A stretch of 30,131 nt of DNA from a virus (taxonomy: Duplodnaviria > Caudoviricetes). This document shows positions 1,282 through 29,410 of this stretch, piece after piece (position 1 is the stretch's first letter; each line of letters begins with the position of its first letter). The stretch spans positions 1-30,131 of the IMG/VR virus record IMGVR_UViG_3300037423_000274. The stretch is one strand, 5' to 3'. The notes beneath the pieces were generated by a model. The model made no database searches and was not told where the DNA came from. It saw only the letters and a program-made list of their open reading frames with translations. Position numbers and translations under genes: made by a program.

Positions 1282-1926
1282 TTAAGTGGAGACTACCGAG
1301 TCAAGCGAAACATACCAGCCGATCACGTCCACGGTTTGCCCTGATGCGGCTGTGGTCCCCTGGTTGCCAGATGCGCTGTCCACAACGAGTCGAATGCGCT
1401 CGATAGTTTGGACATCAAGGTCGAACACCCATGATTCGCCAAGGTCAGTCACGGCGATACTGTTGGTGTGGGCACGCGTGAGGTTATCTACTGGCGTGAC
1501 GGTGGTCCCGCTGACGGTGGCCACGCGGGACCATTCCGAGTTCGCCGGGGTGCCAGTTTCACGCAGATAGAGGAAGTCACCAGCAGTAATGCCTGTGGCC
1601 GATGTCACGGTGATGGAGGATGCGCCGGCACTCGTTGCGCCGTTCAGAGTTGTGCTATTCGCTGCGGTCGTGCCGCTTTGCGAAGTCCATGAAACAAGAG
1701 GCACCCATTCATCATTGCCGCTGGTTGTTGGTGATGCCTCAATGCGAAAACCAACCTGATTGGTCAATGCCGTAGCAACGGTGCGCCCCATCTTGACAAA
1801 GACACGCAGGCCCAGTTTCGTACTAACATCAATAGCGCTGCCGACTGTTACCGCAGCGGATGCCTGCTGTGTCAACCCAAGCAAAACGCCGCTGCCGGTC
1901 TTTGACGCGGTTGTAGTTGATGACAT
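1282..1926 (-). CDS. Putative virion structural (tail-associated) protein
   Basis: 214 aa, Thr/Ser/Gly-rich and beta-rich; SD AAGGA upstream; sits between the tail fibre and LamG genes. Confidence 0.6.
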   Translation of the reverse strand: MSSTTTASKTGSGVLLGLTQQASAAVTVGSAIDVSTKLGLRVFVKMGRTVATALTNQVGFRIEASPTTSGNDEWVPLVSWTSQSGTTAANSTTLNGATSAGASSITVTSATGITAGDFLYLRETGTPANSEWSRVATVSGTTVTPVDNLTRAHTNSIAVTDLGESWVFDLDVQTIERIRLVVDSASGNQGTTAASGQTVDVIGWYVSLDSVVST

Positions 1927-1944
1927 AATTTTTCCTTCTTACGT

Positions 1945-3960
1945 TTAACGGTTTGCCAGCAATGAGAAGCCAATATCGGACAGTGTCGCGTCAGGGGTAG
2001 CAGGGCTGACAATGGAAAGTACGTCGCCCGCAGCAAACGAAACGGCTGCGCCGCCCGTTGTGCTAAACGTCGCGGCGCTTCCACTGGCGGCAAAGGTAAT
2101 GGTCCCTACGCTACTTCCGTTCTTTTGCACATCAAAAGCTGTTGAGGCGGTTGCAGCCGTTTTCGCTTTCACATAACTGCCCGCGAGGTTGGCAGGCAAA
2201 GTGACTGCGACAGCAAATGGCAAATAGAGAATCAATGCGCTTGCGGTTGGCGTGCCAGGATAAAACGCGGCGGGCACGACAGGGACCGTTGCAATTTGGC
2301 TCGCCACATACGTCTTGATCGCCTTCTCAGTTGGCGCCTTGGCGTCAGAGTTTGCTGCGAACGTGCCGTCCGTCGAAATGGCAACGGCACTGTCCTTGAT
2401 GAGCTTACCGGACGAGCCGTCGAACAGTGTAATATGGCCATCCGTCGCGGAAGATGGACCTGTCACGGCGCCGTCGATGTTCTCCTGGACGATATTCCAA
2501 CTGGACCCGGCGGTGGCCTGATTGCCGCTCGCCGCCGTCGACGTGCAATACATTGTGTCGCCGACTTCGACGTTCACACCCGAGGCGCCGCCGATTTTAC
2601 CGGCAACACTGACCTTATAGACAGCACCCGCGTTCGCTGCCGGGTAGTTCGGGCTAGCAGAGCAGTCGATCGTGCCCGCGAAGACCATCACGCCAGCAGC
2701 GCCGCCGGTGACGGTGTTATCGATGTACGCCTTGATAGCCTTCTGCGTGGCGACGCGGGTATCGCTGTTCGCGGCGAGCGTCGTGTCAGTATCGCGCGTG
2801 AGAAGCCCTGCGGTGCCGGATCCCGTGAAGTATGGGATCTGGTCTGCGGCCGACGTCAGCCCGGCAATGGCCGCCAGTTCTGCGTCGTACGCTTGCACGT
2901 CGGTGCCGATTGCCAGCCCGAGTGCCGTGCGTGCCGCGCCGGCACTGGTGCCGCCGGTGCCGCCGTTGGCGATCGGCAGAGCCGTGCCGGAATAGGACAG
3001 CGCGAGCGTGCCGGAGCCGGTAACGGGGCCACCGGAAACCGATAGGAAGCTTGGCGCCGACAGGTCCACGCTTGTGACGGTGCCAGCACCGAGACCGCCA
3101 GCTGTGACGGCAGCGAAGACGTTCGTACCATCTTGGCTGAGAAGCGCTTCTCCGGCCTGCGGCACCACGACGCCGGTCCCGGTGGCACCCTTGACCGTCA
3201 CCGTGTACGAACCGGTCGTGTTGTTCGTGACGATCCACAGACGTGGCGCCGTTCCGAGCGGGACGATGACGTTGATGTTTCCGGTCAGCGCGCCAGTCAG
3301 GTTCAGCAGCGTGTTGTTCGCCTCGGTGCTGGTCAGCGTCACATCGGCACCGCCGGCCACGCTCTTGCTCAGGCGGCCGGTCTGCCATGTGCGCGCCAGA
3401 CTGCCGGCGACCGCCGCTGTTTCGCCCGCCTCCAGCCGATCATCGAGCTTCGTGTAACTGGCGCCGAGCGCGGTACTGTCCTGTGCGGCAAAATCGTCGG
3501 CTGCGCCCCACACGATCGGCGCAATGCGAGTGATCGCACCAAAGGCCGAGCCGGTCCATACCACGGAATACAGGTCTTCGGCGCCGGACGTAGTGCTGCG
3601 CACCGGGGCGCCGGTATTGTCCGCGTAGATGTAGTACGTGGCCGCCGACAGTCCAGTAAAGGACAGTGTTGCAGGCGCGAGATTTCGCACGACGGATGGG
3701 ATCGACGGCTTCCAGTTGAAGCCTGGATCGACGGTCAGCGTATCGCCGCTGCCGCTCATGGCGTAGCTCTCCACGCCGATGATGGCAACGGTCGGGCCGA
3801 ACAGGGCAACGAAGGCCGCTCCGGGTCCGGCTGCGGCAGCAACCTGGCCCGCCAAGTTCTGCTGCAACGCGTCGATCGCCGCCTTGATGTTGGCATAGTT
3901 CGAGTTGTGCTTCGAGATGTAGTTGGTGTCGCCGTTGCTGAATGTCTGAAGGTCGTTCAT
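1945..3960 (-). CDS. Tail fibre protein
   Basis: 671 aa, Gly/Ala/Thr-rich; fibre-type motifs ([31 protein letters not shown]); duplicated AANSD...T(Q/E)KAIK(A/T)Y motif; ATGA overlap with the upstream gene. Confidence 0.8.
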
Positions 3961-25688: not shown

Positions 25689-25997
25689 ATGATCACCAAG
25701 TCCAAGCAAGCATGGGAAGTCGGCCAAACTGTCAAAGTCGGCTTCCTGTCGGGTCTCGTCGTCATGGCGAAGATCGCAACCCCGGGCGACTACGCTCCCG
25801 ATGCGTACATCCTGCGTCGCAACGAGCAGCTGTATAAGTTCGTGCCGCACAACGGCTTGGAGAAGGTCTCCATCAACGAGGCGCGCGATCTGATGGCTAA
25901 GGCCAAGGCATATGCCGAGCGCTGCGCCTCTGCTGCTTTGGCCAAGGCATCTGACAGCGCCCGCAAAAGCTCCGAAATCAACAACCTGTTCGCTTGA
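25689..25997 (+). CDS. Hypothetical protein (antisense insert)
   Basis: 102 aa; SD AAGGAG at 25677-25682; has its own promoter candidate. Confidence 0.8.
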   Translation: MITKSKQAWEVGQTVKVGFLSGLVVMAKIATPGDYAPDAYILRRNEQLYKFVPHNGLEKVSINEARDLMAKAKAYAERCASAALAKASDSARKSSEINNLFA

Positions 25998-26018
25998 ACA
26001 ACTCAACGCAATCGACCT

Positions 26019-26222
26019 ATGAAACCGACCGAATTGATTTCCGCGATCAAGGCGCTGCACTGGACTCAGGCGGAGCTTGCGCGCCGCACCGGGATCAGTG
26101 CCCAATCCGTGAATGCCTGGGCTACCGGTAGCACACCCGTTCCGCCCTGGCTTCCCGCTTATCTCGGGGCGCTCCTCGCACTGCGCGATGCGGCGATTTC
26201 GTGCGGCGCCTGCAAAGGTTGA
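26019..26222 (+). CDS. XRE/Cro-family helix-turn-helix protein
   Basis: WTQAELARRTGISAQSVNAWATG...VP. Confidence 0.88.
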   Translation: MKPTELISAIKALHWTQAELARRTGISAQSVNAWATGSTPVPPWLPAYLGALLALRDAAISCGACKG

Positions 26223-27023: not shown

Positions 27024-27060
27024 AAAAAAATGCCGCCGTCGCATTGCTGCGGCAGGCGGC
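27024..27060 (-). terminator. Rho-independent terminator
   Basis: Minus strand GCCGCC...CGCA-GCAA-TGCG...GGCGGC-A followed by T7. Confidence 0.7.
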
Positions 27061-27096
27061 GAATCCAGAACCAGGGAGGTTTTGGAGGAGACTCAG

Positions 27097-27588
27097 TTAT
27101 GCAAGTGGCAGAAAGTTTCTCCGCCCATACTCGCCGTGATGCTCAAGACTGGCACAGTCATATGCAAATGCGGCTGCGACTTCATCATCGAATTTACCGA
27201 GGTAAAGCGGGCCGAAATCAGTTCGTATCCTGGCTCGCCAACCATTCCCCTCGGCCGACACGCCTTTAAATCGTGACGCAGAGGACTGGCTTCTCTTGCC
27301 TTGATTTCTAGCGTTTTGCCTTGAATCGGCGATTCTCAGGTTTGCCTTCCGGTTATCGAGAGAATTGCCGTTGATGTGGTCAACGAGCTGATCATCCTTG
27401 GCGCCGCACACAAGGCGATGCAGAAAGACGATTACCTTCTTCCCATCGCTGTTGGTCTGCCACCGGACATATCGCTTCGTACCAAAACTAATTCTCCATG
27501 CCCTTCCGTCCGTCAGCAGATGTGCGTCTTCTTCGTCAAGAAGAACATCATGGCCGTCAATTATCACCTTCATGATAGTACTCGGCAT
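27097..27588 (-). CDS. HNH-AP2 homing endonuclease (start may be ATG 27573)
   Basis: FLHRLV...VDHINGNSLDNRKANLR...QN.RN (HNH); SRFKGVS...WRARI...YLGKF.DE..AA.AYD (AP2); lower GC. Confidence 0.93.
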   Translation of the reverse strand: MPSTIMKVIIDGHDVLLDEEDAHLLTDGRAWRISFGTKRYVRWQTNSDGKKVIVFLHRLVCGAKDDQLVDHINGNSLDNRKANLRIADSRQNARNQGKRSQSSASRFKGVSAEGNGWRARIRTDFGPLYLGKFDDEVAAAFAYDCASLEHHGEYGRRNFLPLA

Positions 27589-27610: not shown

Positions 27611-27737
27611 TGTGGCGGCCGGTGCTGTTAGTTCCGGCGTGCGGGCCTTCCGAGGAGCGTCCTCTGTGCTAATGCTGCAGCGCTCGACCACTATCCCGCC
27701 TGCTGTTTCGTGCGAGTCAGCCCTCGCATTCGCCACA
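27611..27737 (-). ncRNA. Candidate tRNA-shaped structured RNA (element A)
   Basis: Closing stem TGTGGCG/CGCCACA; AA linker; TGCGAG-GGCTGA-CTCGCA; long arm GCGGG..GAGCG/CGCTC..CCCGC; GCCGG-AACTAACAGCA-CCGGC stacked on the closing stem. Folded by eye. Confidence 0.6.
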
Positions 27738-27812: not shown

Positions 27813-27912
27813 TGACTGGTTGCGCACCAGTCAGGCGCCGACGCTCCGCATCAGGCAGCGTTTTGCAATTCAACAGGAAAGATTCAGCGGGGCCGGGCCG
27901 CTGTGCGTCGGA

Positions 27913-28088: not shown

Positions 28089-28126
28089 AAACGACAGAAA
28101 CCCGCTGACCTTTCGGGGCGGGTTTC
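28089..28126 (-). terminator. tR'-like late leader terminator
   Basis: GAAACCCGC...GCGGGTTTC followed by TGTCGTTT, starting about 30 nt after the predicted late transcription start. Confidence 0.7.
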
Positions 28127-28208: not shown

Positions 28209-28565
28209 TCAACGAGAATCTATGAAATACCGCTTCACATCCACATTTCGCAGCATTCTAGGTGTTAGGAGCTGCTCGGCCTCGATCAGCACATCAGCCA
28301 GCGGCAGCGAAGGAAACCGCCATACAGTAGCGATGCCATATGCACGGTAGATTGCCCACCGATGTGAGCTTGGCAAATCGCCAACCATCGTATCGACCGC
28401 TTCCCCAGCGCGCATGAATTCCTTGACGTCCTGCGGATGCGCCCAGCCGCCAGCTTCGCGCCTGTCGGTTAGTGTCATCCAGCGCGCCCAAAGCTTCATG
28501 ACGACGACGAAAGGGGAATCGGCTTGCGGAGCTTCTTCCAGTATGGTGTGCTCGATTGCGTTCAT
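28209..28565 (-). CDS. Putative late-gene antiterminator (Q-like)
   Basis: LWARW N-terminal motif and VD.MV.DLP...RWAI...Y pattern; last gene before the promoter-terminator pair. Confidence 0.55.
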   Translation of the reverse strand: MNAIEHTILEEAPQADSPFVVVMKLWARWMTLTDRREAGGWAHPQDVKEFMRAGEAVDTMVGDLPSSHRWAIYRAYGIATVWRFPSLPLADVLIEAEQLLTPRMLRNVDVKRYFIDSR

Positions 28566-29410
28566 GCGTTCTCCGTCGTCGTGGCAGCTGCCGATGTGGC
28601 GGCACCAAGGAAAGTCACACGATAAGTGCCAAACTTGTCGCGGTGCTCCTTCGCGCAGTAGCGACGCATCGCGGATTCGTGCAATTCGCCGGGCAGCATC
28701 TCGATGCTAGTTCCGACGATGCCGCCCTTCCACGAGCCCTTTTCCAGGCCCACCTCGGCACTGAAGCTGATGGACAGCAATCGAGTAACCTGCGGTCGGC
28801 AGAACATGCTCAGCCACCGAAAATACCCCTCTCCACGCCGCCATTCACGCTCCTTAATGCGGGTGCACGCGGTGATTTCCTCGCCATCATGATCGCGGAT
28901 CAGAAATGAAGCGGTCGAGCACAACCTCTTCGCAGCACCTTGGGCGCCATAAGCCTCCATCCCCCTGATGTCCCTGCGCTGACGTTGTTCCCAGAACAAA
29001 TCACCATTGCGGTCATACAGAGAGTAGCGAACATTGCGCCATTGCTTCCACGGCAGGAACCAGAGTTTCGTTTTCGTCGTCACGCTGTCGTGTGTCTGCG
29101 GCCCGTAGTTGATCGAAATATGGCCATCGCTGAAACAGAAGCCGAATTCACGCGGCGAGATTTCGTAGTACCAGTCGCGCCCCATGCGCGCAATCGTCTC
29201 GGCATTCCACATGGCGGTGCACTTGACCTTGTGCGGCTGGATGATGGTCGGCAGCCAGATGCGTACCACCCACCCGAACGCGTTCACGGTCAGCTTGTTG
29301 CGAGGTTCCTCGTCATCGCCGCTACTGAACATCACGCGCAGCGCAGCCCAATCGGAGCGTCCGTAGGTGATGGGGCCGAAACGACGGTCTTGGTCAGTCA
29401 ATCTACTCAC
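28562..29410 (-). CDS. Hypothetical phage protein
   Basis: 282 aa, Trp/Arg-rich; SD AAGGAGG; overlaps both neighbours by 4 nt. Confidence 0.75.
   Translation of the reverse strand: MSRLTDQDRRFGPITYGRSDWAALRVMFSSGDDEEPRNKLTVNAFGWVVRIWLPTIIQPHKVKCTAMWNAETIARMGRDWYYEISPREFGFCFSDGHISINYGPQTHDSVTTKTKLWFLPWKQWRNVRYSLYDRNGDLFWEQRQRRDIRGMEAYGAQGAAKRLCSTASFLIRDHDGEEITACTRIKEREWRRGEGYFRWLSMFCRPQVTRLLSISFSAEVGLEKGSWKGGIVGTSIEMLPGELHESAMRRYCAKEHRDKFGTYRVTFLGAATSAAATTTENA

Follow-up and report, generated by a model that had tools for sequence, protein, structure and literature searches.

A tRNA-shaped RNA domain with a loop-loop pair in phage leaders: member of a widespread family without an Rfam model and sister to STnc100

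Lambdoid phages often carry tRNAs in their late leader, and the C4 RNA of P1 and the CI RNA of P4 are tRNA-like and processed by RNase P. Several prophage sRNAs have been described separately. The prophage-encoded sRNA-17 of Escherichia coli K1 RS218, 193 nt long by RACE and detected by northern blotting, is presented in the accessible part of its paper as an ArcA-regulated sRNA without a family, with no mention of a tRNA shape or a loop-loop pair; its authors regarded its 5' end as promoter-made and reported ArcA binding upstream (Sun et al. 2020, PMC7719688). PasD, an Hfq-dependent RNA detected by northern blotting (PMC8550237), has been tied to the Rfam family STnc100 in a preprint (10.64898/2026.05.13.724894). 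In the dicBF operon of Qin, a prophage in E. coli K-12, the prophage leader is cut by RNase III into small RNAs (bioRxiv 2023.04.14.536235; PMC5069750), including the 72-nt DicF, an RNase III product (PMC5069750), and an RNase III-dependent 190-nt DicF; the accessible text reports loss of cleavage in an rnc mutant for dicBF alone (bioRxiv 2023.04.14.536235). Lambda makes a late sRNA of about 63 nt, LPR2, near the late slot (10.1101/2024.10.31.621285). StxS, the short pR' transcript, is a different object from the element described below (PMC7547250).

The stretch of DNA analyzed here, "the window", comprises all 30,131 nt of the IMG/VR virus record IMGVR_UViG_3300037423_000274 (Duplodnaviria; Caudoviricetes), and its minus strand carries a member of a widespread family of tRNA-shaped phage RNAs without an Rfam model, called here the kissing-loop family (Table 1). 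The closing stem pairs 27737-27731 with 27617-27611, an AA linker precedes the D-position hairpin, and the T-position hairpin is stacked directly on the closing stem (7+5 bp). The minimum-free-energy and centroid structures of the 127-nt segment agree on this fold at -50.9 kcal/mol, and all of the minus-strand elements claimed in the first-pass annotation are present where it had placed them, by fold prediction and covariation. Taken by itself the stability is modest (z -1.97, with 6 of 200 shuffles equally stable), and chance complementarity of 4 nt between two such loops is seen in 9% of shuffles; it is the homologues that settle the reality of the fold and of the loop-loop pair. ARAGORN finds 0 tRNA genes and makes no tmRNA call in the window. 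The Rfam scan gives no match over the element, neither the tRNA model nor C4 (RF01695, no hit at E up to 10) recognizing it. Protein coding was considered and rejected: the lengths of the element are spread over the frames (32, 29 and 40 of 101 representatives), and no anchored frame is open in more than 47 of the 101.

Table 1. Positions of the element, its parts and neighboring features (window coordinates unless a locus is named)
Feature	Position	Strand	Basis and remarks
tRNA-shaped RNA domain (whole)	27611..27737	minus	Fold; covariation in 72 homologues; 69 bits with family model R1 (window element in its training set)
Closing stem, 5' strand, 7 bp	27731..27737	minus	Fold; doubles as the lower end of the upstream helix (alternative pairing)
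D-position hairpin UGCGAG/CUCGCA, loop GGCUGA	27711..27728	minus	GCUG at 27721-27718 pairs with the other loop
Variable middle arm, 72 nt in the window	27639..27710	minus	Family range 6-178 nt
T-position hairpin GCCGG/CCGGC, 11-nt loop with CAGC at 27627-27624	27618..27638	minus	Fold, covariation
Closing stem, 3' strand, then AACA (no CCA)	27611..27617	minus	Sequence
Upstream 17-bp helix with 2x2 internal loop	27733..27812 (arms 27812-27794, 27751-27733)	minus	Fold; overlaps closing stem; putative RNase III site
HNH endonuclease gene	27097..27588	minus	Pfam HNH_3; phrog_99, E 1e-30
Anti-Shine-Dalgarno (anti-SD) sRNA with terminator	27025..27093	minus	Rfam RF02278 at 33.9 bits, below the cut-off of 50
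Hairpin then U-rich run, possible first leader terminator	28097..28126	minus	Fold
118-aa ORF at the Q position	28209..28565	minus	Atlas rank-30 match to a Q cluster at 0.89
tmRNA-like tag frames	L602:1750-1890, L601:1680-1843, L600:1260-1430; also upstream in L029, L421, L422, L523		

Alignment A2 holds 72 of the 80 candidate core variants, 8 having been left out. Its rows were picked for variation; selection involved the three stems but left the loop-loop pair aside. In four scans the T-position loop was required to hold a non-consensus letter, with no demand on the other loop. In the 72 sequences 97.7% of the cells pair, and changes on both sides are seen for 15 of the 21 pairs overall and for 4 of the 4 loop-loop pairs, so that all four helices, the loop-loop pair included, show compensatory changes; in the D-position stem every one of the 5 scored pairs changes on both sides. 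None of 500 shuffles reaches the values of the alignment, and slid registers pair at 25-55%; in three of the compensated rows (L172, L209 and L229) the alignment is partly wrong, and these rows tell against the structure. Covariation among homologues thus extends over the element and its loop-loop pair: the tRNA-like geometry proposed earlier, with its 7-bp closing stem and 5-bp T-position stem, is borne out by fold and covariation together, and the pairing of the complementary flanking loops GCUG and CAGC gains support from the compensatory changes. Counted by cluster, with two elements of uncertain register dropped, 54 non-consensus letters in the T-position loop comprise 41 that keep a G-U pair, 7 that are compensated and 6 that break the pair; the G-U-keeping changes are mostly transitions, common in any case, and weigh less than the compensated ones. 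The natural variants of the loop-loop pair include GGUG/CACC, GCCG/CGGC, ACUG/CAGU, GCCA/UGGC and GCAG/CUGC, and the closing stem of the window has C-G where the family consensus is U-A.

The layout common to the family is that of two fixed ends of about 26 nt around a middle of very variable length. A structural descriptor run over the collected loci recovered 176 distinct elements, which fall into 103 clusters by middle sequence and whose middles measure 6-178 nt (median 67), copies with only 6-12 nt being among them. An exact scan for the 3' half listed 120 loci, from an estimated total of 600 IMG/VR stretches, with a matching 5' half upstream in 83 of 95 distinct loci; the exact scan for the 5' half points to about 920 stretches, and 68 of 90 distinct loci have a strict 3' half no more than 300 nt away. 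Of 120 loci from a looser-pattern scan of genome contigs, only L242 was retained. Named carriers are phage P1, with two copies, Klebsiella phage Magnus, Bas80 and Pseudomonas phages. Of 5426 complete E. coli genomes, 1249 cover a 261-nt query, flanks included, to 80%, a count which perhaps includes sister modules, with identities down to about 74%. Scores of intact members with model R1 are mostly 57-86 bits, several of these members being in its training set, and among 151 genomes of one betaproteobacterial family, with 24 candidates scored in each, at least two have a match. Weak Rfam overlaps far below the cut-off were seen for RF02278 on L042 (24.1 bits) and for sX4 on L505 (27.4 bits).

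The closest described family is STnc100 (RF02076), which has the same scaffold: a 7-bp closing stem with UGGUG, an AAU linker, a first hairpin, a variable middle and a stacked 5-bp hairpin whose loop begins with AG and ends with GCA, the scaffold being followed by a 3' hairpin. Its first hairpin differs from that of the kissing-loop family, and its T-position loop has 5 nt (AGGCA), against 8-13 nt across the kissing-loop family and 11 nt in the window; the 4-bp GCUG/CAGC pair cannot form as such in a 5-nt loop. At the scaffold ends R1 scores 14 of 14 STnc100-type loci (17-29 bits), and of 3 control loci from 16S it scores none; the STnc100 model (gathering cut-off 47 bits) recognizes the element neither in the window nor in any homologous locus scanned. 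The kissing-loop family and STnc100/PasD (PasD1 and PasD2) are sister families, the former not being a member of STnc100 by the cut-off; the orphan status suggested by the first-pass annotation holds as far as Rfam matches go, and the shared scaffold makes the element less of an orphan. Two unannotated STnc100-type modules were also noticed in E. coli K-12, one between dicF and dicB (L604:3457-3580) and the other under the annotated ORF ymfH of e14 (L605:764-882).

The relationship to sRNA-17 is closer still. The primers and supplementary alignment of that study contain both conserved halves of the family (PMC7719688); the two halves of about 26 nt come with the same helices, and the window shares alignment A2 with L002 and L004, which are sRNA-17-type sequences. 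Judged by its sequence, sRNA-17 is a published member of the kissing-loop family, though it differs from the window in having another middle arm, an early-left position, a DicF-like 3' terminator and no anti-SD sRNA. With tRNA the family shares the acceptor-like and T-like coaxial helix, of 7 bp on 5 bp in the window as well; a cloverleaf with an anticodon arm and T-loop consensus (RF00005) is missing, and the 3' end is AACA in the window, an encoded NCCA being present in 10 of 101 representatives. In tmRNA a large insert likewise replaces the anticodon arm (PMC4131195, in the part available); the G3-U70 pair of tmRNA is not found in the family, where 174 of 174 elements have U-A as pair 3 of the closing stem, and the insert of the window has no tmRNA tag frame. 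Unlike tRNA, tmRNA, C4 and CI, the kissing-loop family has an elbow made by a Watson-Crick loop-loop pair, with neither a T-loop consensus nor a constant CCA. Lambda has a related closing stem in the same late slot, without a D or T arm. The published literature, in a search that also missed sRNA-17 and was not exhaustive, yielded no account of the tRNA shape, of the loop-loop pair or of a folding switch; the motif strings of the family occur in none of the main texts searched, the largest supplements of two structured-RNA screens lying outside that search. What is known of the family, then, is one expressed member, sRNA-17, and a sister Rfam family, STnc100.

That homologue also provides what is known of the product. 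The RNA product expected by the first-pass annotation has a counterpart in sRNA-17, as seen by northern blot and RACE (PMC7719688, accessible part). The full-length primer for sRNA-17 starts 3 nt before the closing stem, its 5' end thus resting on a primer, and in the near-identical locus L480 the span from there to the terminator is 194 nt, ending 60 nt past the element. The detected homologous RNA is therefore the domain plus a 60-nt terminator module, and not a free mimic of about 127 nt; the free product of about 125 nt that had been predicted does not agree with it. Terminators are found within 150 nt downstream in 38 of 101 representatives, as against 7 on the opposite strand and 2-4 in shuffles, a near terminator being absent from the other 63. 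In Bas80 the element lies behind a sigma-70 promoter matching at 10 of 12 positions and before tRNA-Met, opposite to the flanking genes, and a promoter-led unit so oriented argues for an RNA product.

Upstream of the domain, a long helix competes for the 5' strand of the closing stem. In the uncut transcript of the window, the UGUGG strand is predicted to lie in this helix with a probability of about 0.9, while a predicted fold starting 3 nt before the closing stem has the tRNA shape restored; with its strand captured upstream, the domain is predicted to take the tRNA shape only once the transcript has been cut. In 59 of 101 representatives the upstream helix outscores every one of 40 dinucleotide shuffles, and in 56 it captures at least 4 nt of the closing strand; a significant upstream helix is absent in 42. 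Some early-left copies (11 of 101) have instead a long helix which continues under the closing stem, and their flanks are the same as those of the lambda N leader, whose stem we take to be an RNase III site. The lambda late cuts at +209 and +270 would, we assume, fall in the homologous helix. In the window the predicted 17 bp offer the long helix over a cut site that an RNase III substrate has. By arithmetic, the end of the 72-nt DicF lies at 3454 of L604 (K-12), 2 nt before the STnc100-type module that begins at 3457, and the start of the 190-nt DicF lies 3-8 nt before another UGUGG with a similar helix; the dicBF cuts would thus fall a few nt before a UGUGG-led stem, as is proposed for the family of the window, though the dicBF module is STnc100-type and DicF, an Hfq base-pairing sRNA, has no relation to the kissing-loop fold. 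These published ends, which come from a sister module, from arithmetic or from primer positions, agree with a cut just before the closing stem. As separate observations, the upstream helix (in L481, L496, L497 and L600, for example) has a variable top, which in 14 of 101 representatives contains a T-arm-like hairpin motif; just 5' of it in the window is a small hairpin (27814-27834, minus strand), nearly unchanged in L019, L532 and L536, which is probably another conserved module. In phage P1 (L600:1920-2811), upstream-helix modules alternate with the two family copies and one STnc100-type module.

The reading we prefer, with a probability of roughly one half, is that the element is the RNase III-released, end-protecting 5' domain of a processed leader RNA and carries an exchangeable middle arm. 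It builds on the observed fold, loop-loop pair, variable middle, competing helix and neighbors, to which it would add cleavage, refolding and protection. The leader would be transcribed with the UGUGG strand first pairing into the long upstream helix; RNase III would cut this helix 2-4 nt before UGUGG; the freed strand would then re-pair with its 3' strand, the loop-loop pair locking a compact L-like shape; and with only 2-3 free nucleotides at the 5' end, the product might resist 5'-end-dependent decay. This stable product would carry the middle arm and a downstream part, usually a terminator-ended sRNA or tRNAs, although in the window the inserted HNH gene would come before the anti-SD sRNA. 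Several things count against this reading: the near-invariant loop and linker letters are not needed for end protection and hint at a specific binding partner, the arm is dispensable in the copies with a middle of 6-12 nt, and some relatives of the window phage lack the block entirely; so do the 42 representatives without a significant upstream helix, the 63 without a near terminator, and the view of the sRNA-17 authors that its 5' end is promoter-made.

The invariance of the core exceeds what end protection requires, and this keeps in play, as a rather unlikely alternative, a free tRNA mimic, cut by RNase P at +1, trimmed at its 3' end and given CCA, which would titrate a tRNA-binding host or defense protein through its stem and elbow. 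The 7+5 bp coaxial geometry is kept with covariation, and the core stays near-invariant while the middle can shrink to 6 nt. tRNA genes occur within 2.5 kb in 9 of 55 loci, all 27 of them on the strand of the element and some within 3-10 nt, and in P1 the chain of modules stands behind tRNA-Asn and tRNA-Thr. The RNase P-type maturation that the first-pass annotation had considered nevertheless finds no support, NCCA being rare after the stem (the 10 in 101 given above), and the mimic has neither the T-loop consensus nor the anticodon arm; the mapped homologue, sRNA-17, with its 193 nt, starts at -3, which is not the RNase P position, and the invariant UGUG/CACA is found as well in lambda leader stems that lack a D or T arm, and may thus be a feature connected with RNase III. 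The idea of a decoy for anticodon nucleases, also raised earlier, is unlikely, as nothing is conserved at the anticodon position, in sequence or in length (6-178 nt).

The middle arms are only mildly more structured than their shuffles (mean z -0.59 over 97 arms). That of the window shares words of 11-12 nt with the arms of L047 and L051; a search within the window for an antisense target gave a single 12-nt match, and its sub-motif was found in none of the viral contigs searched. The window arm was considered as a mimic of 16S helix 6 and rejected, the match not being significant: 31 of 200 shuffles score equally against the best of three 16S genes. In one arm of 99, that of L407, 36 of 40 nt reproduce a 16S rRNA helix (about 240-280), with a score of 60 against a shuffle maximum of 24, and the same 16S-helix insert is found in L120, L128, L144 and L195, where it replaces most of the first hairpin. 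The L407 copy suggests an extension that we regard as speculative, with odds well short of even: a natural tRNA-scaffold display in phages of Proteobacteria, in which an RNase III switch would lock a frame that presents swappable RNA decoys against host RNA-targeting defenses or RNA-binding proteins, homing endonucleases riding on the stabilized transcript. In L010, a separate observation, a reading frame stops immediately ahead of the T-position hairpin and looks as though it had been inserted into the middle arm; the repeat in this frame presumably resembles those of homing endonucleases, and no 5' half was found in the 4.2-kb fragment.

Flanks were annotated for 102 of 219 ORFs, from 47 of 55 loci. 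Late leaders account for 19 of the 47, 14 with Q upstream and 5 more with lysis genes downstream, and 9 are early-left, recognized by an upstream repressor gene or else by a downstream gene that is N-like or typical of the early-left region; the others comprise 3 among packaging or head genes, 1 P1-like locus and 15 that were left unclassified. The late-leader placement given by the first-pass annotation thus recurs in lambdoid phages, and the element is found in early-left leaders and tRNA clusters as well. Of the 47 annotated loci, 28 belong to one or other leader of the antiterminated operons, and the closing strand has two alternative partners; the element might therefore be considered a put-like antiterminator or a leader switch, acting in cis either on RNA polymerase during elongation or on how the next gene is translated. 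We find this improbable: the element coexists with Q or N genes, is located elsewhere too, with terminase and portal genes on either side or inside tRNA clusters, has in Bas80 no same-strand protein gene downstream to control, and often stands just before the terminator where the homologous RNA ends. Very improbable is that the fixed ends, found around unrelated middles (103 clusters, 176 sequences) in a block present or absent among close relatives, are DNA-level boundaries promoting cassette exchange between phages with an incidental RNA fold, given that loop-loop compensation and G-U tolerance fit the transcribed strand and that the homologue is a detected RNA, though shuffling may still profit from the ends as a by-product; a ribozyme or small-molecule sensor, which the compact pseudoknotted junction and near-invariant unpaired letters (linker AA in 153 of 174 elements) might suggest, is equally hard to credit, with no match to any Rfam ribozyme or riboswitch and no constant class of downstream gene.

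On the minus strand of the window the order is Acb3, the 118-aa ORF, the leader, the element, the HNH gene, the anti-SD sRNA with its terminator, small ORFs and terminase. The 118-aa ORF has no match in Pfam, PHROG or NCBIfam, and a Q-like identity is a lead only; the hairpin listed in Table 1 as a possible first leader terminator is absent from the terminator scan of the window. The anti-SD sRNA resembles the Betaproteobacteria toxic sRNA, a family whose function is given as unknown in the accessible part of its description (PMC4603805), and to judge from this sRNA type alone the host is probably betaproteobacterial. In 8 other phage loci an anti-SD sRNA begins 3-4 nt after the closing stem. 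The HNH gene appears to have been inserted between the domain and the sRNA, judging from relatives without it: contigs of relatives with 80% likeness in two other runs (X2 and X4) join 27610 to 27065 with no HNH gene, and relatives' contigs in two runs, also at 80% likeness, skip the whole block. The window therefore adds to the family a GC-rich variant with compensatory changes in two stems, coupling to an anti-SD sRNA and what seems to be an HNH insertion between the two.

Several further features were noted around these loci. The gene for the CBASS inhibitor Acb3 (28562-29410, minus strand; Pfam PF25187, E 9e-65) lies directly before the Q-position ORF, and two small genes on the opposite strand at 25689-26222 (plus), one encoding a helix-turn-helix, interrupt the run from leader to terminase and look like a moron or a toxin-antitoxin pair. 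Upstream of some family members, in the non-coding unit, is a tmRNA-like tag frame (ANDD..LMAA and a stop in L601 and L602) with no visible tRNA-like domain and with scores below the cut-off for the Rfam tmRNA models; a tmRNA review, in its accessible part, lists no such phage RNA with a tag frame (PMC4131195). In L608, a full two-piece betaproteobacterial tmRNA gene (1814-2182, minus strand; 129-131 bits) shares its strand with a family member and lies about 500 nt upstream of it.

The family is common, with some 600-920 IMG/VR stretches by exact motif, two copies in P1 and many in E. coli prophages, yet it has no Rfam model. It links sRNAs that had been described separately from prophages, namely sRNA-17, STnc100, PasD and the neighborhood of DicF, as outcomes of a single modular leader design, probably punctuated by RNase III, and it offers a concrete structure with compensatory mutants available for testing in P1 and E. 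coli. If the arm is a decoy, this would be a general platform for RNA-based counter-defense; if the frame only protects ends, it would be a new stability element, the natural counterpart of engineered tRNA scaffolds.
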